From an uncultured delta proteobacterium (lineage in GTDB: Bacteria > Desulfobacterota > Binatia > Binatales > Binataceae): DNA of 64,000 bases. The position numbers and the translations under genes were made by a program. Position 1 is the stretch's first letter. The number at the start of each line of letters is the position of its first letter. The stretch spans positions 160,001 through 224,000 of the forward strand of contig CAWCDG010000004.1 in NCBI GenBank assembly GCA_963794325.1. The letters run 5' to 3'. This document shows positions 433 through 57,758 of this stretch, piece after piece. Below the pieces are notes generated by a model. The model ran no database searches, had not been told where the DNA came from, and saw nothing but the letters and a program-made list of their open reading frames with translations.

Positions 433-1216
433 GCTCGCGGCCAACGACTCCGCGCTCCGAGTTTTTGATAAAATCGACCAATCGCCGCACCTCGGCCAGC
501 TCGCCGTATTCTTCGAGCGTCTTCGCGATCGCTTCCTCGCGCAGCAGTTTCGAGAAAAACAGGATGCGGGTGGCAGCCTTGATAGCCGCGATCTTCTCGG
601 TGCTGAAGCCGCGACGCTGGAGTCCGATCTCGTTGACTCCCGCCAGGCGCGCCCGATCGCCCGCCACCATCGAGTACGGCGGCACGTCCTGCGCCACCTT
701 CGCTCCGGCCGCGACGAATGCGTGCGCGCCGATGCGGCAGAACTGATGCACCCCGCTCATTCCCTCGAGACTTGCAAATTCCTCGAGCACGCAGTGACCG
801 CCGAGCTGGGTCGAGTTCACCAGGATGCAATTATCGCCGATGACACAATCGTGGGCGATATGAACATAGGGCATGATCAGCACGTGATTGCCGATCAGCG
901 TGCGCATCCCGCCAACTTCAGTCCCGCGATGTATCGACGTGAACTCGCGAATCGTGTTGTCGTCGCCAATCTCGAGGGTCGCCGGCTCGCCGTGAAACTT
1001 CAAATCCGGCGTCGCGCAACCGACTGCGGCGAACGGGAAGATTCGATTGCGCTGGCCGATAGTAGTGAGAGATTCGATGACGACGTTTGCGCCAATCACG
1101 CTGCCCGCGCCGATCTTTACTTGCGGTCCGATCACCGCGCCCGGACCGACTTCGACGCTCGTGTCGAGTTCGGCCCGCTGGTCGATAACCGCCGAAGAAT
1201 GGATTCGCCCCGCTAT
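425..1216 (-). CDS. lpxA: Acyl-ACP--UDP-N-acetylglucosamine O-acyltransferase
   Basis: Hexapeptide repeats, HRGT, HIAHDC, VHQFCRIG, GVNEIGLQRRGF. The frame extends upstream of the track start (1135) through RIHSSAVID to ATA at 1216. Confidence 0.95.
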   Translation of the reverse strand: MAGRIHSSAVIDQRAELDTSVEVGPGAVIGPQVKIGAGSVIGANVVIESLTTIGQRNRIFPFAAVGCATPDLKFHGEPATLEIGDDNTIREFTSIHRGTEVGGMRTLIGNHVLIMPYVHIAHDCVIGDNCILVNSTQLGGHCVLEEFASLEGMSGVHQFCRIGAHAFVAAGAKVAQDVPPYSMVAGDRARLAGVNEIGLQRRGFSTEKIAAIKAATRILFFSKLLREEAIAKTLEEYGELAEVRRLVDFIKNSERGVVGRERE

Positions 1217-1674
1217 CGAACTTGCTCCTCGACTTCCATCGCGGACAATTCCGCCTCAGCCGCCAACTCGTCGCCGACCTTCGCCACCGCCTGCATCCGC
1301 CACAGCGGCCGATGAAATTTCAGAATTTTTACTTCCATGCGCAGTTGATCGCCCGGGATTACGCGCCGCCGAAAGCGCACTTTGTCCAATCCGGTCAGCA
1401 CGAACAGACGCGTCGGGTCCCCGCCCACTTCATTGAGTGCAAGGATCGCCCCCGACTGCGCCAACGCTTCGACGATCAGCACTCCCGGCATCACTGGATG
1501 CCCCGGAAAGTGTCCCGCAAAGTATGGCTCGTTGAAAGTGACGTTCTTGATCGTTACGACCCGGCCCTTGCCCAGTTCGAGGATGCGATCGACTAACAGA
1601 AACGGATAGCGATGGGGCAGCAGCCCCAGCACCCGCTCGAGTTCCGAGACTTTCGTGTCGTGGTCGTCAGGCAC
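1213..1674 (-). CDS. fabZ: 3-hydroxyacyl-ACP dehydratase
   Basis: LPHRYPFLLVDRI and GHFPGHPVMPGVLIVEALAQ motifs; position before lpxA. Confidence 0.95.
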   Translation of the reverse strand: MPDDHDTKVSELERVLGLLPHRYPFLLVDRILELGKGRVVTIKNVTFNEPYFAGHFPGHPVMPGVLIVEALAQSGAILALNEVGGDPTRLFVLTGLDKVRFRRRVIPGDQLRMEVKILKFHRPLWRMQAVAKVGDELAAEAELSAMEVEEQVR

Positions 1675-1680
1675 CGCGGC

Positions 1681-2332
1681 CTACTTCGAGATCGTCGACT
1701 TCTTGGCCGCCTGCGATCCGAAATCCGACGGCTCCGACGCGCCCGGCTGATCGCTCTGGACGCTGGCCGGCCGTACTCCGCTGCCCGGACCTTCGCCCAC
1801 CGATCCGATCGGTACGTGCATCGTGTTGTAACTGCGGATCACCTGGTCGGTGATATCGATATTCGGCGCGCCCCACAGAATCGATCCCTTCTCGAACACC
1901 ATCGTATAGTTGTCGCGCTCGCCCACCGTGCGGATGACTTGCGCGAGGTCGTGGACGATCTTCGCGGTGACCTCCTGGTCCTTGGCCTGCAGCTCGTCCT
2001 TCGAGTCCTTGTAGTCGCGCTCGAAGTTCTTGAGCTTCTCCATGTACTGATCCTGCAGGGCCTGGCGCTGATCGGGATTCATCAGCATGCCCTTTTTTCT
2101 CCATCTGGTCCTTCAGCGATTGGACTTCGTTTTGCTGCCGCTGAAGGCGTCCCTCCAGCGAGGTGACGCGGCCCTGGAAGTCGGCCTTGGCGCGCTTGCC
2201 GGCGTCGCACTCATTGAGCGCCCGTTGCACGTCAACGTAGGCGAACTTGAATTCGGCGTGCGCGGGAACTGCCGCTAACGTCATCGCAAGGAACACACCG
2301 AACATCGCACCGATGAACAACCGTTGCCTCAT
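1681..2332 (-). pseudogene. skp: Skp/OmpH periplasmic chaperone, split by a frameshift at about 2090-2098 (may be an assembly error)
   Basis: Signal peptide plus KFAYVDVQRAL in the ORF starting at 2332. The C-terminal half (YTMVFE...DITDQVI) is in another frame (1681-2088). The junction is an A6G3 run. Confidence 0.8.
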
Positions 2333-2512
2333 ACAGCCCGGAAAGCCTCCTGTTGACTAGCTATCTGAATCCGCGACACACGTTCGCACGCGCGCGCCAC
2401 CCGATGCCACGTGAATCATACACAATAGTATCTCATAGAGCATTAAATCCAGTTGCGCGTGGCCTGATAGTCGTTAGGTTTTCCCAGAAATCGCTGGACC
2501 TCATTCGCGAAG

Positions 2513-4945
2513 CTACAACGGCGAACCCGCGCCGACTTCAAACACGGTGCTCTGATCGGCCGGCCGTGGATTGATCGGAAAGGCGATGTCCACCGCCAGC
2601 GGCCCGAATGGCGATTTCCAGCGCACCCCGATTCCCGCCGACGCCTGCAGCTTGGTGATGTCGAGCGAATCCTTGAGCAGGAACGATTGTCCCGCGTCGC
2701 TGAATATCACCCCGCGAATGCCCAATCCGGACAATATCGGGAACGTGATCTCGTTGCTGAACAGCAACTCCTTGCTGCCGCCTACGTCCTGCACGCTTTG
2801 CGGCGTGCCGTTCGCGCTGAAGATCGTCACCTGCGGGCCCAACGAATAGAGCTGATAGCCGCGCACGTCGCCCGGGCCGCCGACGCCGCCCGGGAAGAAT
2901 CGCTCGTAGAGCGGCAACTCGCCACCGGTCCCGTTTTGCAGATTGGTCCCGATGCCGAAGGTGATTCCCTGCGACAGCACGAACGTTCCCAGCGTCTGGC
3001 TCTTCAGGAACGGATAGAAGTATCTGAAATGGGCGACGCCCTTGATGAACGAGTTGGTCCCGCCGAGTCCGCCAAACTGCATACTGAGGCTCTCGACTGT
3101 ACCGGTGCGCGGATCGGTCGGATTGTCCACCGTGAAGCGGCGTATCGTCGGCGTAATTTCAGAGGTCTGCGTGTAGCCCTTGTAGCGCGCGATTTGGAAG
3201 GTCGTGAATGCGTTCAGCCCGGTGATTCCGATGCTCTGATACGAGTAGCCAATTCCCGCCGAGATGTCCTTCAGCGAAAACGGGCCAAGCTTCTTGAAGC
3301 CGAGTTCGGTCAGCGGGTAGGTCGTCGTCAGCGTGAATCCGGCCGCCGACTGGTTGAAACTCAGCAGGTACTGTTTGTTGTCGAATAGCTGCAGACCCAC
3401 GGCCAGGGGGATATCCAGGAACCACGGCTCGGTGTAGCTGATGCTGTAGTTCTGGAACAGAAATCCCACCTGCGCATTCGCGACGAGCGATTCGCCGCCG
3501 CCAAACAAGTTGGTATTGCCCAGCGTGAAATTGCCGAACACCGATTGATAGCTGTCGAATCCTCCCGCGACCTGGAACGACGCGGTGTTCGCCTCGGTCA
3601 CGTTGACGTCGAGGTTTATCTTGTCGGGCTGCGTGGCCGGAGCGGTCGTGATGCGCGTGTCGCTGAAGAATCCGAGCCGGTCCAGCCGCACTTTCGAATC
3701 GCGGATCTCTTCGGCGCTGTACGGCTCCTGCTCCTGCACCTGAATCTCGCGCCGGATTACCTTGTCCGAGGTTTTCGTATTGCCGCTGATATTGATGCGG
3801 TTGATTATCACTTCGTGGCCGGGATTGATCACGAACACCACGTTGACCCGCTTGTTGGTGTGGACCAGCTGCGTGTGCGGATCGACGTTGACGTAGGCGT
3901 AGCCGCGATTCGAGTAGAAATCCGATAGCGCCAGCACCTGCCGCTGCAATGCTGACCCGCGGAATAGTTGCCCGCTCTTCATCGTCAGCAGTCTGCGCAA
4001 TTCGTGACGCGGAAATTTCAGGTTGCCGGTGATGTCGAGCCGGCCGACCCGGTACGGCGTGCTCTCGTCGATGGTTATTACAATCGTGATTTTCTCGCCG
4101 CTGCGCACTGTCTGCGGCGGTGCAATCTGCACGTTGAGGTAGCCGTTGTCGTAGTAAAATGCGGTCAGGCGATCGACGTCTTCCTGAAGTTTCTTCGGAT
4201 CGAGCGCGCCCCATCCCGTGACCCAGCTCAGCAATTTACTGTAGGGCCGCGTTTCCATATTGGCTTGCAGAATCGAGGACGAAAACGCGTGGTTGCCGAC
4301 GAACTCGATTTTCGTGATCTCGACCTTCGGCCCTTCCACCACGTCAAATTCGCCGAACGCCGTGTTGTCGGGCTGCGGAATCGGCTTGAAAGTTACCTTG
4401 GCGTCCGTGTAGCCCGCGTCCGCGTAAACCTTGGTGATATTGTTGATCGTCTCCTTGACCGCGATCGGATCCAGTATCACTCCCGGATGCACTTTCATCG
4501 CCGCGACTATCTTGTCGTCGTTCGATCGGATCGCCTTCATCCCGTACAGCTTGACGTCGCTTATCTGCGGGCGTTCCTTCACGTAGTACACCAGCACGTT
4601 CTGCGCGCCCTGCCTTACCACGTGCGCACTCACCGCCGAGAAAAAACCCAACGACTCAATCGACTTGATATCCGCGGTTACCGCATTCGGATCGAGCGGC
4701 TGGCCGACCTGCTGCGTGATATGGATTCGAATCGCGTCCTCTTCGACGCGTTGATTACCGCTGATCTGAATCTTTGAGATTATCGGCCCCGATCCCTGCG
4801 CGCGCGCCACCGATGCAGTGAGCATCGCGGCTACCATCACTGCTGTCAGCGCGAAGGCAGCAAGCAATAGCGTTCGATGTGGGCCGCGAAGCCCGCAAGA
4901 TAACGGCGCGCGCGGCGTGCGCGCGTTGAATTTTCCCGATGTCAC
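2513..4945 (-). CDS. bamA: Outer membrane protein assembly factor BamA
   Basis: POTRA repeats (ISGNQRV, GNTKTSDKVIRRE, RLDRLGFF), YTEPWFLD, VRGY, GVRWKSPFGPL. True start may be somewhat downstream. Confidence 0.95.
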   Translation of the reverse strand: MTSGKFNARTPRAPLSCGLRGPHRTLLLAAFALTAVMVAAMLTASVARAQGSGPIISKIQISGNQRVEEDAIRIHITQQVGQPLDPNAVTADIKSIESLGFFSAVSAHVVRQGAQNVLVYYVKERPQISDVKLYGMKAIRSNDDKIVAAMKVHPGVILDPIAVKETINNITKVYADAGYTDAKVTFKPIPQPDNTAFGEFDVVEGPKVEITKIEFVGNHAFSSSILQANMETRPYSKLLSWVTGWGALDPKKLQEDVDRLTAFYYDNGYLNVQIAPPQTVRSGEKITIVITIDESTPYRVGRLDITGNLKFPRHELRRLLTMKSGQLFRGSALQRQVLALSDFYSNRGYAYVNVDPHTQLVHTNKRVNVVFVINPGHEVIINRINISGNTKTSDKVIRREIQVQEQEPYSAEEIRDSKVRLDRLGFFSDTRITTAPATQPDKINLDVNVTEANTASFQVAGGFDSYQSVFGNFTLGNTNLFGGGESLVANAQVGFLFQNYSISYTEPWFLDIPLAVGLQLFDNKQYLLSFNQSAAGFTLTTTYPLTELGFKKLGPFSLKDISAGIGYSYQSIGITGLNAFTTFQIARYKGYTQTSEITPTIRRFTVDNPTDPRTGTVESLSMQFGGLGGTNSFIKGVAHFRYFYPFLKSQTLGTFVLSQGITFGIGTNLQNGTGGELPLYERFFPGGVGGPGDVRGYQLYSLGPQVTIFSANGTPQSVQDVGGSKELLFSNEITFPILSGLGIRGVIFSDAGQSFLLKDSLDITKLQASAGIGVRWKSPFGPLAVDIAFPINPRPADQSTVFEVGAGSPL

Positions 4946-47630: not shown

Positions 47631-50078
47631 CTATCTGGTTACTTTCACCTGCACCGAGGTCGTGTGGTGCAGCGGCCCGCTGTCACCCGCGATCGTAAGC
47701 GTAAAGATTTTGCCGGCTCCCTTCTTCGTGCGCAACTTCAACGTGCTGTTAGCAGTCGCCGGGTTTGGCGCAAACGTCGCCGTGCTCCCGGTCGGGGTAC
47801 CGCTGACGCTCAAAGTAACTGAACCCGCAAATCCGTTCAGAGAGGTCACTGTCACCGCATAGGTCGCGGTCTTTTTGCGGCGAACTTTCTCGGACGCCGG
47901 CGATGCCGATAGCGCGAAGTCGGGACTCGGGGTTGGGGTCGGTGTAGGCGTTGCCGTCTCGGTCGCGGTGGCCGTAGGGCTAGCGGTACTCGAGGCAGTC
48001 GCAGTTGGCGTGGCGGTCGCAGTCGGCGGCGAGGTAGCCGATGCGGTCGGTGTAGCTGTCGCAGTCTGCGTAGCGGTCGCGGTTTGAGTGACGGTGGCTG
48101 TCACCGTTGGCGTCGTCGTCGCGGTCTGAGTCGCCGTCGCAGTTGGTGTTGAGGTCGCCGTCCGAGTCGCGGTCGCTGTAGCAGTTGGGGTTGAGGTCGC
48201 CGTGGATGTTGCAGTTGGGGTTGCGGTGAGCGTCGCAGTTGGGGTCGCCGTGGCTGTTTGAGTCGCGGTCGAGGTCGGCGTCGCTGTCGTTGTGGCCGTT
48301 GAGGTCGCAGTGGAAGTTGCGGTTGGCGTCGCTGTACTCGTCCCGGTGGCCGTCGTAGTCGATGTCGCTGTAGCGGTTTGAGTCGCGGTGGCTGTTGGGG
48401 TCGCCGTTAGACTTGAGGTCGCCGTCACTGTCGGTGTTAACGTTGCTGTTTGAGTCGCGGTGGCTGTCGGCGTCTGCGTTGGCGTCGCGGTATTGGTCGC
48501 CGTTGCGGTCGCGGTTGGCGTCACGGTCGCGGTTAACGTGGCTGTGGCCGTCGCTGTTTGAGTCCCAGTGGCGGTCGCCGTCTGACTTGGCGTCGCGGTG
48601 GCGGTCGCAGTTGGAGTTAGCGTAGCGGTCGCGGTCAACGTGGCGGTCGCCGTCGCGGTATGAGTCGCAGTGGCTGTCGTCGTCGCTGTTGGTGTGGCCG
48701 TCGCTGTTTGGGTCGCAGTGGCGGTCGCCGTCTGAGTTGGCGTCGCGGTATTGGTCGCCGTTGCGGTCGCAGTTGGCGTAACGGTCTCGGTCAGCGTGGC
48801 GGTGGCCGTCGCTGTATGCGTCGCGGTGGCCGTCGCCGTCTGAGTTGGCGTCGCGGTATTGGTCGGGGTTGCGCTCGCGGTTGGCGTGACGGTCGCGGTC
48901 AGCGTGGCGGTGGCCGTTGCGGTATGCGTCGCAGTAGCCGTCGCCGTCCGAGTTGACGTCGCGGTATTGGTCGCCGTTGCGGTCGCAGTTGGAGTCCGGG
49001 TGGCGGTCGGTGTCGCGGTACGGGTCGCCGTATGCGTGGGAGTCGGGGTCGACGACGCGGTAACGATGCAAGCGTTGGCGTAGTTCGAGAACTCCTTTTG
49101 GACAGTGTAGGTCTGACCGTCTCCGCCGAGGATGCTGCCCTGCTGCGCGTTGCAGATATCGCCGATCTCGCCGTTGTTGTTGTCGTACCAGGCCAGTGGC
49201 GGCGCGAGGGCGCCCGCCAGCCCTACTTCGCAGTCAGTGATTGTCTCGGTCATCTCGTGCGAGGCGACCGAGGTGTAATTCCCGAAGACGGTACTGCCGC
49301 CGCATCCAGTGGCGCAGCCCGACCCGGTCTGCATGTCGGGATGGACGCCGTAATAAATCTCGCCGATTGAACCGCCGGCGTCGATCGTGCCGTGGTAGGC
49401 GCAGAAGCCGCCTGCAACGCAGGACTCCGATCCCCCCAAGGTGATAACCGTCCCGTGGGGGAAAAAGATCGCATAGTAGGTGTTATTGTTGCCGGCCGCG
49501 TCGGCCGTGGGGGCGGGTATGTGGCCGGCGTTAATCTGGTTCACCAACTCGGTCTGGATGGCGGTGTCGTCGATCGGGTTGGATTTGTCCGTAGGCGTGA
49601 TAGCGACTTGCACCGAGAAAGAGCCGTGGCCGATGGTCTGGTTGGTCCCCTCGCTGCCGCCGTGGTCGATAATGTCGGTGTTGTACTCGGTCAGCCAATC
49701 CACGTAGGCGCTGTTCAATACTTCTTCGTAAAAGGTCGCCATGCTCGGCGTGGAGGTGTTGACGACCTGCGATAGAAATTCGCCGTTGTTGCCGCCCGCG
49801 CCGCCAGTTCCCCACAGCACCTGAACCACTTGAAGGTTGGAGACGACCCGGCCGCCGTAGTAGGTGAGATGAGCGCCGCCCGGCGCCGCCGCTTTGAGAC
49901 TACCGACCCGCCGGATCGGCAGCGCGTTGGGACCTCCAACCAGCAGCGGATTGCTATTGGCGCCCGACGCCGCGGAGGCAATCGTCAGCATCGCCAGCAG
50001 GACCATCGCGCTGCGCAACGTCGAGAGCCATCGATGCTCTCGCGCAGACCGCGATCGGCTCACCCTCGCGTGTCTCAC
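47631..50078 (-). CDS. Secreted Phi-1/EXORDIUM-like domain protein with Thr/Ala/Pro stalk and C-terminal Ig-like domain
   Basis: Signal peptide; [30 protein letters not shown]; long TAT(P)T tract; DFALSASP. Confidence 0.75.
47925..49050 (-). repeat. Coding low-complexity repeat (TATPT)n with 108-bp higher-order units
   Basis: TC(T/C)GAGTTG(G/A)CGTCGCGGTATTGGTC recurs at 48731, 48839 and 48947. Confidence 0.85.
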
Positions 50079-51150: not shown

Positions 51151-51399
51151 GTGATGGATCCGAAGGAAATCGAGACGATGATTGCGCGCGGGATTCCCGA
51201 TGCGCAGGTCGAGGTGCGCGACTACACCGGCGGCGGAGACCATTTCGAAGCCGTGGTGGTCAGCGCGAGTTTCGAGGGCAAGGGTCTAATCGAACGGCAT
51301 CAACTGGTGTATAAGGCGCTGGGCGACGCGATGCGCGCGCAGGTGCATGCGCTGACTCTCAAGACCTTGACGCCGGCGCAAAATCAGAACCGCAGATAG
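51151..51399 (+). CDS. bolA: BolA/IbaG family protein
   Basis: DHFEAVVVS.SFEGK..IERHQLVY, VHAL. Confidence 0.92.
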   Translation: MMDPKEIETMIARGIPDAQVEVRDYTGGGDHFEAVVVSASFEGKGLIERHQLVYKALGDAMRAQVHALTLKTLTPAQNQNRR

Positions 51400-51410
51400 A
51401 GGAAATAACA

Positions 51411-51743
51411 ATGGCGGACATAATCGAAAAGATCGAAGCGGCAGTCAAAGAAAACAAGATCATGATCTTCATGAAGGGTAACCGCAGCTTTCCGCAGTGC
51501 GGATTCTCGGCGGCGACCGTCGCGATTTTCGACGAGATCGGCGAGCCGTACGCGACCGCCGACGTGCTGAGCGATCCGGAACTGCGCGACGCGATCAAGC
51601 AATACAGCAACTGGCCGACGATTCCGCAGGTATATGTCGACGGCAAGTTCGTCGGCGGCTGCGACATCATTCGCGAGATGCACGAGTCGGGCGAGCTCGA
51701 GCCGCTGGTGAAAGCGGCGGTGGGAGCATCGGCGCAGCAGTAG
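51411..51743 (+). CDS. grxD: Monothiol glutaredoxin (Grx4)
   Basis: FMKG, PQCGFS, WPTIPQ, GGCDI. Confidence 0.95.
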   Translation: MADIIEKIEAAVKENKIMIFMKGNRSFPQCGFSAATVAIFDEIGEPYATADVLSDPELRDAIKQYSNWPTIPQVYVDGKFVGGCDIIREMHESGELEPLVKAAVGASAQQ

Positions 51744-51758: not shown

Positions 51759-51801
51759 GCAACCTAACCCCTAACCCCTTCCCGAGCGGGAAGGGGAACC
51801 G
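51759..51801. repeat. Family A copy, identical to 53600-53642
   Basis: GCAACCTAACCCCTAACCCCTTCCCGAGCGGGAAGGGGAACCG. Confidence 0.9.
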
Positions 51802-51871: not shown

Positions 51872-52762
51872 ATGCTCACCGAACAGGAACGTTCGTTTCT
51901 CGAGGCGATGGCCAAGGCTCCGATGCCCACCGATGTCCAGGGGCTGCGAACGCTGATGGATACGTTCGCGCCGATGATGAATCAGAATCTTCCCGAGATT
52001 GGCGCGCTGCATGAGGCTGTGGAAATTCGGCCGAGTCTCACCGCCGATGTGGCGGTGCCGAAGGGGAAAGGGCCGTTTCCGGTAGTCGTGTATCTGCACG
52101 GCGGAGGATGGGTCGGCGGCAGTTCGAAATCGCATCGCAAACTCGGCATGCAATTCGCCGAGGCGGGTTATCTGACGATCAACGTCGATTATCGCCTCGC
52201 GCCCGAGCATCCGTTTCCCGCCGGCCTCGACGACTGCGTGCGTGCGGTGAAGTGGGCCGGGGAAAACGCAAAGCGATGGGACGGCGATGCGTCGCGGCTG
52301 GCGGTTGGCGGCGATTCTGCCGGCGGCAATCTCACTGCGGCGACAGTCACGTCGCTCGCATCGGAGAAATACGCGGGTCCGGGGAAGCCGAAGGCTGCGC
52401 TTTTGATCTACGGGTTGTTCGATTTTCCCGCGCAGATGAAACGCGACGGCGCCGCAGCGTTCGACGGAATGATCAAGGCGTACGCGGGCGCGGGATATCC
52501 CGCGATTCTGGAGGATCCGCGAGTCAGCCCGCTGCGCGGGGTGAAGCCGGGCGCGATGCCGCCGAGCTTCCTTATATGCGGCACCGCGGACACTCTGCTG
52601 CCGGAGACGCACTCGATGGCCGATGCGCTCAAGCGCGCCGACATCAGGCACGAAGTCGCGATCTTCGACGACATGCCGCACGGCTTCCTGCAGATGGACG
52701 TGCTGTCGGGATGCAAGCAGGGACTCGACAAGATGTTCGATTTTCTGCGTCGCACGATTTAG
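51872..52762 (+). CDS. Alpha/beta hydrolase (HSL-family esterase)
   Basis: GGAGG RBS; HGGGW, DYRLAPE, GDSAGG, HGF. Confidence 0.92.
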   Translation: MLTEQERSFLEAMAKAPMPTDVQGLRTLMDTFAPMMNQNLPEIGALHEAVEIRPSLTADVAVPKGKGPFPVVVYLHGGGWVGGSSKSHRKLGMQFAEAGYLTINVDYRLAPEHPFPAGLDDCVRAVKWAGENAKRWDGDASRLAVGGDSAGGNLTAATVTSLASEKYAGPGKPKAALLIYGLFDFPAQMKRDGAAAFDGMIKAYAGAGYPAILEDPRVSPLRGVKPGAMPPSFLICGTADTLLPETHSMADALKRADIRHEVAIFDDMPHGFLQMDVLSGCKQGLDKMFDFLRRTI

Positions 52763-52794
52763 CGCTCAAGCCCGTTCAGCCGGGGAGAACTGCG

Positions 52795-53409
52795 ATGGCC
52801 TGGATAAAGACTGTCGGCGAAGATCAGGCGGTCGGGCGGCTCGCGGAAATCTACCAGAAGTATCGCGGGCGCAACGGCATGGTGCCCAACATCATGCAGG
52901 CGTTCAGTCTCAAGCCTGAGCTGGTCGGCGCGGTGGCGCACACTTTCCAGGTCGCGACGTTCGGCGGATCGAAGCTGACGCGGGTGCAGGAAGAGATGAT
53001 CGCGACGGTCGTCTCGTCGATCAACCGCTGCCACTACTGAACCAACGCGCACGCGGAGGTTCTCCGCGTCCATAGTAACGGCGATAACGACTTGGTTGCG
53101 CACGTCAAGCACGACTGGCGCACGGCTCCGCTGTCGGAGGCGGACAAAGCGATGCTCGCCTACGCGGAAAAGATCACGATGAATCCGTCGTCGATGACGC
53201 TGGACGACCTGAACTGCCTGCGCGCGCATTTCAGCGAAGAGCAGACGCTGGATATCGTGGTGATCGCGAGCCTGTTCAACTTTATCGATCGAATCGCGGA
53301 CGGTCTCGGCGTCGAGCTCGATTCGGTGCTGAAGGAGATGGCGGCGAGGTCGCCGGATGGCGAGGCGCTGACGGAGGTTGCTGCATCGATGCGGGGGAAG
53401 AAGAAGTAG
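52795..53409 (+). CDS. AhpD/CMD-family peroxidase-related selenoprotein (CxxU; TGA at 53038-53040)
   Basis: EMIATVVSSINRCHY-TGA-TNAH continues in frame into DWRTAPLS...FNFIDRIADGLG; SECIS-like hairpin follows. Confidence 0.88.
53051..53069 (+). promoter_or_regulatory. Candidate bacterial SECIS element
   Basis: ACGCGGAG-GTT-CTCCGCGT perfect stem starting at the 11th nt after UGA, with GU in the apical loop. Confidence 0.8.
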
Positions 53410-53599
53410 GAAGGCTGCTCATCATCCTGACGAAGCGAGGAGACGAGCCTCATGTGTCATCCTGACAGAGCGAGCACCGCGAGCGGCAGGAAATGGCTGC
53501 TGGCCTCCGGACAGCTTCGCGCAAGCGAAGCCGGTTCCGGTTTCTGAGATCGCGCAGCGCCCCTTGTTTATGACGGCGCGGACGTCGCGAACAATGCAA

Positions 53600-53642
53600 G
53601 CAACCTAACCCCTAACCCCTTCCCGAGCGGGAAGGGGAACCG
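53600..53642. repeat. Family A copy, identical to 51759-51801
   Basis: 43/43 match, same orientation. Confidence 0.9.
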
Positions 53643-56228: not shown

Positions 56229-56267
56229 ACCTGACCCCTAACCCATTCCCATAGTGGGAAGGGGGAC
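56229..56267. repeat. Family A degenerate copy
   Basis: ACCTGACCCCTAACCCATTCCC-ATAGT-GGGAAGGGG. Confidence 0.7.
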
Positions 56268-56366: not shown

Positions 56367-57758
56367 ATGGCGCTGTGGAAACCTGATCAAACCTTTTACC
56401 CGTCGGCGCGGATGGCGATGCAGGCGCCGCGCGAGCAGCTCGGCTACGTCGTCGCGTTCAATCCGACGCCGGCGAACAACAAGCATGACGCGCTGTGCGT
56501 GATCGACCTCGATCCGAAATCGACGACCTACTCGCAGGTCGTCGGCCGCGCCGCAGTGCCGAATGCCGGCGACGAGCTGCATCACTTTGGATGGAACGCG
56601 TGCAGCGCCGCGCTGTGCCCCTACGCGCCGCATCCCCATGTCGAGCGGCGCTATCTGCTGGTGCCGGGATTGCGATCGTCGCGGATCTATATTTTCGACA
56701 CGAAACCCGACCCGAGGAATCCGAAGCTGGTGAAGACGATCGAGGCCGACGAAATAGCGTCGCGCACGGGATACAGCCGGCCGCATACGATTCATTGCGG
56801 GCCCGATGCGATTTACGTCAGCGCGCTTGGCGATCCAAAGGGTGATGGGCCGGGCGGAATCTTCCTGCTCGATCATGAAAGCTTCGACGTGCTGGGGCGA
56901 TGGGAAGTCGATCGCGGGCCGCAGAAGCTTGCGTACGATTTCTGGTGGCATCTCGGCTGGGACGTGGCGATTACCAGCGAATGGGGCACGCCGAACATGA
57001 TCGAAAACGGCGTGGTGCCCGAGTTGCTGCTGGGAAATAAATACGGACACGCGATTCACATCTGGAATCTGCGCAACCGGCGCCATCTGAAGTCACTCGA
57101 CCTGGGCGCCGAGAATCAAATGGCGCTCGAGCTGCGTCCGTCGCACGACCCGACCAAGACGTTTGGTTTCGTCGGCGTCGTGATCTCGACCAAGGATTTG
57201 TCGGCGTCGATCTGGCTGTGGCATCGCGATGGCGGCGACTGGAAAGTTCGCAAGGTGATCGAAATTCCCGCCGAGCCCGCCGACGAAAGCCTGCTGCCGC
57301 CGGCGCTTAAGCCGTTCAAGGCAGTGCCGCCGTTGATTACCGACATCAACCTGAGTCTCGACGATAAATTTCTATACGTCGCGTGCTTCGGCACCGGCGA
57401 CCTGAAGCAATACGATGTGAGCGATCCGTTCAAACCGAAGGAGACGGGCAGCGTGCGGCTGGGCGGGATCGTGTCGCACGGGAAGCATCCGAAGAGCGGG
57501 CCGCTCAACGGCGGGTCGCAGATGATCGAGCTGAGCCGCGACGGGCGGCGCGCGTACATGTCGAACTCGCTGTACGGCGCGTGGGATGCGCAATTCTATC
57601 CCGAGGGCATCCGCGGCTGGATCGCGAAGATCGATTGTGCGCCGGCGGGCGGGATGACGATCGATCCTGATTTCTTCACGACCTTCGACGGCGAACGGCC
57701 GCATCAGATTCGCCTCGAAGGCGGCGACTCGTCGTCCGATTCGTTCTGCTATCCGTGA
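56367..57758 (+). CDS. Selenium-binding protein SBP56 / methanethiol oxidase family
   Basis: GDELHHFGWNACS, RPHTIHC, YDFWWH, SEWG, SLDDKFLY, NSLYGAWDAQFYP, GGDSSSD. Confidence 0.92.
   Translation: MALWKPDQTFYPSARMAMQAPREQLGYVVAFNPTPANNKHDALCVIDLDPKSTTYSQVVGRAAVPNAGDELHHFGWNACSAALCPYAPHPHVERRYLLVPGLRSSRIYIFDTKPDPRNPKLVKTIEADEIASRTGYSRPHTIHCGPDAIYVSALGDPKGDGPGGIFLLDHESFDVLGRWEVDRGPQKLAYDFWWHLGWDVAITSEWGTPNMIENGVVPELLLGNKYGHAIHIWNLRNRRHLKSLDLGAENQMALELRPSHDPTKTFGFVGVVISTKDLSASIWLWHRDGGDWKVRKVIEIPAEPADESLLPPALKPFKAVPPLITDINLSLDDKFLYVACFGTGDLKQYDVSDPFKPKETGSVRLGGIVSHGKHPKSGPLNGGSQMIELSRDGRRAYMSNSLYGAWDAQFYPEGIRGWIAKIDCAPAGGMTIDPDFFTTFDGERPHQIRLEGGDSSSDSFCYP

Follow-up and report, generated by a model that had tools for sequence, protein, structure and literature searches.

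A probable AhpD-like selenoprotein gene with an in-frame UGA and a SECIS-type hairpin in a soil member of the Binataceae

The window, a stretch of 64,000 nucleotides from the genome of an uncultured member of the Binataceae, very probably contains one intact gene (52795-53409, + strand) for a 204-residue selenoprotein of the AhpD-like family TIGR01926, with a CMD fold. Its reading frame is interrupted by a single UGA, and comparison with related sequences makes it highly probable that this codon (53038-40) is read as selenocysteine (Sec). The host belongs to the Binataceae, which are represented by "uncultured delta proteobacterium" MAGs from soil. The evidence comprises the profile matches of the product, the TGA/Cys column that it forms with homologues, a covarying hairpin directly after the UGA and a Sec pathway in the source genome.

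Reading frame, family and fold

When the TGA was translated as U, the frame gave 204 residues (...EEMIATVVSSINRCHYUTNAHAEVLR...) and held no other stop codon between 52795 and 53409. The start codon at 52795, the TGA at 53038-53040, the TAG ending at 53409 and the length of 204 residues given in the initial annotation all agreed with the coordinates and the translation. It had also stated that the gene is split in the ORF track, and translation table 11 indeed produced two open reading frames, one ending at 53040 and the other, of 105 residues, running from a TTG (53092-53409). The features of the gene are collected in Table 1. In the orthologues, AAGGAG, AGGGAG, TAGGAG or GGAGG was present 7 to 10 nt upstream of the equivalent ATG, with the exception of the copy in genome G026 (loci L022/L053), which carried only AGAGAC at the ribosome-binding site.

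Table 1. Positions of the features of the putative selenoprotein gene within the window
Feature	Position	Strand	Remarks
Shine-Dalgarno-like motif GGGGAG	52782-52787	+	7 nt upstream of the ATG (52795-52797)
Complete gene of the putative selenoprotein	52795-53409	+	204 codons plus TAG; AhpD-like, TIGR01926; predicted Sec as residue 82
GAG, Glu67	52993-52995	+	12 residues N-terminal of Cys79; in the E-R/E-E-M-I-A block of alignment A2 and of 2prr/6k40
TGC, Cys79	53029-53031	+	first residue of CxxU; invariant column in A2
In-frame UGA, predicted Sec (U82)	53038-53040	+	column of TGA or Cys codons
CAC, His86	53050-53052	+	His of the C-x-x-C/U-x3-H motif; near-invariant column in A2
Bacterial SECIS-type hairpin	53051-53069	+	perfect 8-bp stem of 53051-53058 (ACGCGGAG) with 53062-69 (CTCCGCGT); apical loop GUU (GTT in DNA), 53059-61
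TAG stop codon	53407-53409	+	

The deduced protein passed the cut-off of TIGR01926 (NCBIfam, peroxidase-related/AhpD-like) with 120.7 bits against 81.8. The match placed residues 2-173 on positions 1-173 of the 178 profile positions and scored 113.1 bits in the six-frame search of the genome. The Pfam CMD profile was also passed (33.4 bits, cut-off 23). The product had initially been described as an AhpD/CMD peroxidase; this assignment held for TIGR01926 and CMD and failed for canonical AhpD (TIGR00777), which was rejected at 16.9 bits against a cut-off of 191.95. The NF041238 "CFYUT" family was likewise rejected, scoring 94.9 bits against 175 with a match to only positions 151-344 of its 357.

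A profile built from 18 homologues (A2) was compared with the PDB and matched 2prr (E=3.1e-58) and 6k40 (E=5e-54), as well as 3c1l, 2oyo and 2pfx, the E values ranging from 3e-58 to 4e-51. The matches covered A2 positions 3-184, on both sides of the UGA, and the solved homologues have Cys at the position of U82. The AF2 model of the protein (pLDDT 86.2, pTM 0.83) consisted of a single all-helical domain with 11 helices. Foldseek aligned the model to 6k40 with a TM score of 0.80, an rmsd of 1.8 A and 35% identity, and the TM scores of the best matches (6k40, 3c1l, 2oyo, 2pfx and 2prr) were 0.76-0.81.

The protein contained E67-x11-C79-x-x-U82-x3-H86; in A2, the C79 column and the U/C column were invariant and H86 was nearly so. 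The pattern E-x11-C-x-x-C/U-x3-H is what we take to define the redox centre of AhpD-type proteins, and Glu67 occupies the position of the proton-relay Glu of AhpD, a role assigned to it here by analogy. In the AhpD of M. tuberculosis, the second Cys is the nucleophile, and the Glu and His act as a proton relay. Judged from its homologues, the window protein may be a selenol/thiol reductase of hydroperoxides or disulfides.

The UGA column and the hairpin in related genomes

When 61 related genomes were searched in six frames, 36 match rows were obtained, 23 of which contained an in-frame TGA. At the 27 distinct places that could be aligned, the U82 column was TGA in 20 and TGC or TGT in seven, and the 20 TGA places spanned several families of the class, at 29.7-93% identity to the query. 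The TGA thus aligned with the second Cys of CxxC in the Cys homologues, as had been proposed initially, and the expected conservation of UGA plus hairpin was found at 20 of the 27 places, each of the 20 having a hairpin. The orthologues in named records (67-92% identity) came from "Candidatus Binataceae / Binatus" and "uncultured delta proteobacterium" MAGs. Among the eight full-length loci from named records, TGA was present at the column in seven (TGA was seen in L050-L055 and L057), and the eighth, L056, was frameshifted. The frameshift of L056 lies early in the gene; another, after about residue 158, was seen in L054 (the same as G013, L025/L049). Either frameshift may reflect genuine decay or an error of long-read assembly.

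Among 151 genomes sampled evenly across the phylum, 18 rows passed the TIGR01926 cut-off; six of these contained one TGA each, and the other 12 lacked a TGA. Such a mixture of Sec and Cys forms is usual in selenoprotein families. In the genus sample, a match at E <= 1e-10 was obtained in only nine of 36 genomes, and three of the nine were short C-terminal fragments or a Cys form of 22% identity; the gene is therefore dispensable.

Independent assemblies also covered the site. A soil DNA contig of another study (X5, 52784-53120) from a relative about 94% alike and a soil RNA-library contig (X16, 52994-53165) from a relative about 89% alike both spanned the UGA and the hairpin. Among the differences listed for these two contigs, none changed 53038-40 or 53051-69, and the differences clustered at third codon positions, which lends weak support against a sequencing error at the UGA. 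Parts of the gene were matched by further RNA-library contigs (X15, 52806-53026, and more pieces in addition to X16) from relatives about 89-95% alike; RNA libraries may contain DNA and contigs give no level, so X15 and X16 were not read as transcription.

The 5' base of the hairpin is the 11th nucleotide past the UGA, and the structure (-12.9 kcal/mol) is embedded in the codons for H86-A-E-V-L-R-V92. The perfect 8-bp stem with a GTT loop that had been reported from the 11th nucleotide after the UGA was therefore found as described, at 53051-53069. Bacterial SECIS elements have been characterized as stem-loops that lie in the coding region, directly on the 3' side of the UGA, and have a G in their small apical loop (PMC1088965), and the hairpin in the window is of this form. 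Comparison of 52700-53500 with Rfam at E <= 10 gave no match at the hairpin and only two chance snoRNA-like matches.

Taken in isolation, the hairpin is only moderately unusual and not statistically striking. For the 48 nt from the UGA, RNAfold gave z = -1.11, with 25 of 200 shuffles folding equally well or better, and the minimum free energy (MFE) structure was a competing fold that pairs the GA of the UGA. The same competing fold was the MFE structure in four of the eight distinct orthologue sequences folded. A perfect stem of at least 8 bp followed 16 of the 1,764 TGA trinucleotides of the window (~0.9%), eight of the 16 having a G in loop bases 1-2. Five of the other 15 sites were translated (7248, 35540, 41888, 41908 and 56500), and none of the five yielded a coherent frame. 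What makes the hairpin significant is that it is conserved, covaries and accompanies a TGA placed at the Cys column.

A hairpin of at least 6 bp with a G in loop bases 1-2 was present shortly past the UGA in all 20 TGA forms, and in 19 of them the stem had at least 7 bp. Of the seven Cys forms, one had a stem of at least 7 bp, which began 2 nt past the codon, and none had a loop G of that kind. Across nine distant sequences of the window type, the equivalent stem was 90.3% paired, compared with 23.6-70.8% when the 3' arm was slid. Stem pair 17-27 was CG in four of these, GC in four and UG in one; it ties the choice between Ala and Gly, made at the second base of one codon, to a synonymous choice at the third base of a Leu codon. 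None of 500 shuffles equalled the covariation score of this set. In seven orthologues, the 8-bp stem was 100% paired and showed one double change, C-G to U-A, in L055 and L057; here the score was equalled by 29 of 500 shuffles, and the support from covariation among these orthologues may be called modest. Conservation of the stem is in part imposed by the conserved peptide H-A/G-E-F/V-L-R.

Three hairpin designs were observed among the TGA forms of AhpD-like paralogues within one class. The design seen in the window was common to L027-L032, L037, L044 and L045. The second (GCTGCTC-CGTGC-GAGCAGT) was found in the long C-F-Y-U-T proteins of L038-L040, homologues in the same class with a SECIS of their own. 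The third (CTTCCTGCA-GGC-TGCAGGAGG) was found in L047 and L048, which encode AhpD-like paralogues of 376-380 residues with TGA at the same column, in the context C-H-Y-U-I or C-V-Y-U-E. Compared with the distant homologues of the class, the Binataceae stem was one pair longer, at 8 bp, and its loop lay one base further 3'; published SECIS elements were compared by description only.

Selenocysteine machinery and other readings of the UGA

The source genome (G000) is 85% complete in 10 contigs. The initial annotation had predicted selABCD in this genome, and selA (569.7 bits), selB (375.3 bits) and selD (376.9 bits) were recovered by profile searches together with a tRNA-Sec (72.4 bits; called by ARAGORN as tRNA-SeC with anticodon TCA). 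All four were above their cut-offs and all were on contig C4. The selD gene, which adjoins selB, lies outside the window (G000:C4:1158546-1161572, locus L017) and encodes a selenoprotein in its turn: a single TGA stands in its frame, within the N-terminal motif A-A-G-U-A-G-K.

We infer Sec insertion itself, the roles of the catalytic residues, the substrate and the reductant along the following lines. As a ribosome reaches the UGA at 53038-40, the hairpin at 53051-69, with its 8-bp stem and GUU loop 10 nt past the UGA, would recruit SelB carrying Sec-tRNA(Sec), and Sec would then be placed as residue 82. Where helix 80-93 begins, Cys79 and Sec82 would act as a redox-active selenenylsulfide couple beside Glu67 and His86, forming a Sec version of the AhpD-type E-x11-C-x-x-C-x3-H centre. 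The activity is most likely that of a selenol/thiol-dependent reductase, with either hydroperoxides themselves or an oxidised partner of the peroxiredoxin type as its substrate.

The best placed of the other readings is that the UGA serves mainly as a true stop, with an 81-residue peptide and perhaps a 105-residue protein from the TTG at 53092 as products, Sec insertion being rare or conditional on selenium. Bacterial Sec insertion competes with termination, and an open frame from the TTG to 53409 is present, as this reading would have it. Against it, the solved homologues are single domains that cover both halves, and conservation extends over residues 83-99, the segment from the UGA to the TTG: in A2, H86, L90 and R91 are conserved residues that precede this next possible start. 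By eye, no ribosome-binding motif was seen just upstream of the TTG. Of the 11 modelled helices, six would be missing from the 81-residue fragment, as would the second of the redox residues. Predominant termination is thus very improbable.

A pseudogene or an assembly error, that is, a nonsense TGA or a miscalled TGC/TGT in a Cys-type AhpD-like gene, would fit the split of the frame under table 11, the two frameshifted orthologous copies in other MAGs and the public gene calls that end at the TGA. The 81-residue product cut at the UGA belonged to a cluster of 26 in the public protein collection searched; 14 of the 15 members listed were 81 residues long, and five of the 26 carried the name "alkylhydroperoxidase family enzyme". 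Neither the full-length 204-residue sequence nor the TTG fragment was found in that collection. The initial suggestion that pipelines miscall the gene is thereby substantiated, with 26 truncated proteins public and the full-length form absent.

The conservation of the TGA effectively refutes a pseudogene or an error, which we regard as scarcely credible: 20 of 27 places share it at this column, among them homologues of as little as 29.7% identity, and it recurs in many independent assemblies. The frame holds no further stops, the TGA is followed by a covarying hairpin, and the contigs from another study had no change in the codon among their listed differences. Selection on the part of the gene after the UGA also argues against it. 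Downstream codon differences that left the residue unchanged or changed it numbered 26 and 15, 27 and 13, and 24 and 12, respectively, in comparisons with the three closest orthologues; across six orthologues, the ranges were 24-40 unchanged versus 12-35 changed. Unchanged-residue differences were about equally common downstream and upstream of the UGA, and protein conservation extended over both sides of it in A2. These codon comparisons show that purifying selection persists downstream of the UGA.

Recoding of the UGA to Cys, Trp or Gly, by near-cognate read-through or an alternative code, is as implausible as a pseudogene: any inserted residue would yield the same open frame and a Cys would restore the usual CxxC, but TGA terminates 24 of the 43 long open frames in the window and also ends orthologues, so codes 4 and 25 do not apply, a complete Sec pathway with a TCA-anticodon tRNA is present in the genome, and simple read-through does not need a SECIS-like hairpin. 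The reading of the UGA as Sec in one intact gene is preferred in what follows.

Neighbourhood, related systems and implications

Upstream of the gene and on the same strand lie genes for BolA, a glutaredoxin and an Abhydrolase_3 esterase, the last ending 32 nt before the ATG. Downstream, on the opposite strand, are genes for a DUF882 peptidase, an L,D-transpeptidase and an enoyl-CoA hydratase. The BolA and glutaredoxin genes (51151-51743, +) form a classic Fe-S/redox pair and are kept upstream of the esterase in orthologous loci. A full-length gene for SBP56, the "56 kDa selenium-binding protein", was found 3 kb downstream (56367-57758, +; Pfam, 623.5 bits) and also neighbours L051 and L053; a link to Sec insertion is not implied. 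The gene order was kept among the Binataceae orthologues, which are close relatives. Beside the distant homologues compared, none of SBP56, enoyl-CoA hydratase, DUF882 and L,D-transpeptidase was found, and because the order is not kept there, synteny says little about function.

The esterase gene was adjacent in seven of the ten Binataceae genomes compared and 1.5 kb away in two; in the remaining one, none was found within 3 kb. Conceivably, the Sec protein is the redox half of a module with this esterase, or a selenol-based dehalogenase, rather than a generic peroxide scavenger; we consider this unlikely. A module of the two proteins, if real, could act on esterified (lipid) hydroperoxides. 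The reductive dehalogenase alternative is based on the debrominase Bmp8, which has the CMD fold and aligned to the window protein with a Foldseek TM score of 0.72.

Several repeats were noted around the locus. Just past the stop codon are two tandem copies of TCATCCTGAC-N-R-AGCGAG (53422-53439 and 53457-53474), a pattern with 18 copies in the genome against none for the reversed-pattern control. The summed contig depth over 53450-53551 was ~1,000-3,500 in two soil DNA runs, compared with ~13 over the gene, which identifies this segment as a widespread repeat. A REP-like palindromic intergenic element containing CCTAACCCCTTCCC occurs at 51770-51783 and 53611-53624 and also near 56250; it has 218 copies in the genome against three for the reversed control, and two copies on the + strand flank the pair formed by the esterase and selenoprotein genes. 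Further upstream, an ORF of 815 residues on the - strand (47631-50078) begins with a non-repetitive N-terminal part of ~340 residues and continues with repeats rich in Thr, Ala and Pro (T-A-T-P-T-A-T...) over several hundred residues.

The statement in the initial annotation that CxxU AhpD-like selenoproteins are already known was correct according to the relevant parts of PMC1088965, PMC2398784 and PMC13188914. In the Sargasso Sea study of 2005, Zhang et al. described AhpD-like CxxU selenoproteins with 27 sequences (COG2128) and a SECIS figure (PMC1088965); "AhpD-like 1" was among the most abundant families of the GOS study of 2008, with 299 sequences (PMC2398784); a 2026 review lists "AhpD-like protein, TIGR01926, CxxU" (PMC13188914); and the family is the subject of the example page of BSepDB (PMC13326102). 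The published family and the window protein share TIGR01926, Sec as the second residue of CxxU, a 3' hairpin with a G in the loop, and widespread Cys homologues. The published sequences come from marine metagenomic reads of unknown hosts, whereas the window gene comes from soil Binataceae. In the portions consulted of the literature on Binatota and selenocysteine, nothing was found beyond work on methane cycling in sponges.

The structurally solved relatives, DR1765 (6k40), 2prr, 3c1l, 2oyo and 2pfx, have the same family, fold and E...C-x-Y-C-x-x-x-H block as the window protein. They are Cys-Cys forms, whereas the window protein would have Sec at the second position. D. radiodurans lacking DR1765 is sensitive to H2O2, and CxxC mutants complement poorly, as summarized in a review (PMC8945050); in the parts of the literature covered, DR1765 is the only one of the five with a known oxidative-stress phenotype. 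The AhpD of M. tuberculosis (1gu9/1knc) has in common with the window protein the CMD/AhpD core and E-x11-C-x-x-C-x3-H, with a weak profile match over the motif (E 9.5e-4). It differs in size and architecture, and the window protein scores below the TIGR00777 cut-off. Coupling to AhpC and lipoamide is not known to occur in the TIGR01926 clade. NF041238 (AhpD_rel_CFYUT, the "hypothetical protein 1" of the Sargasso Sea study) has a related AhpD-like domain with CxxU; its profile has 357 positions, and the window protein has 204 residues with C-H-Y-U-T.

The gene in the window is real and currently mis-called; it belongs to a well-known family of selenoproteins, in a soil lineage that has been little studied. 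Published descriptions of the AhpD-like family, its CxxU motif and its SECIS date back to 2005, and knowledge of selenoproteins as such is unchanged by this gene. The main gain is a corrected annotation of the gene and its orthologues; since public sets hold only the 81-residue stubs, selenium use by the Binataceae is under-counted. The locus also offers a clean case in which the codons of a conserved helix, the one following the active site, contain a SECIS hairpin. If the three SECIS designs and the one-base register shift of the Binataceae copy are taken together, they would point to repeated SECIS remodelling under a double constraint, that of forming the hairpin and that of encoding this helix.
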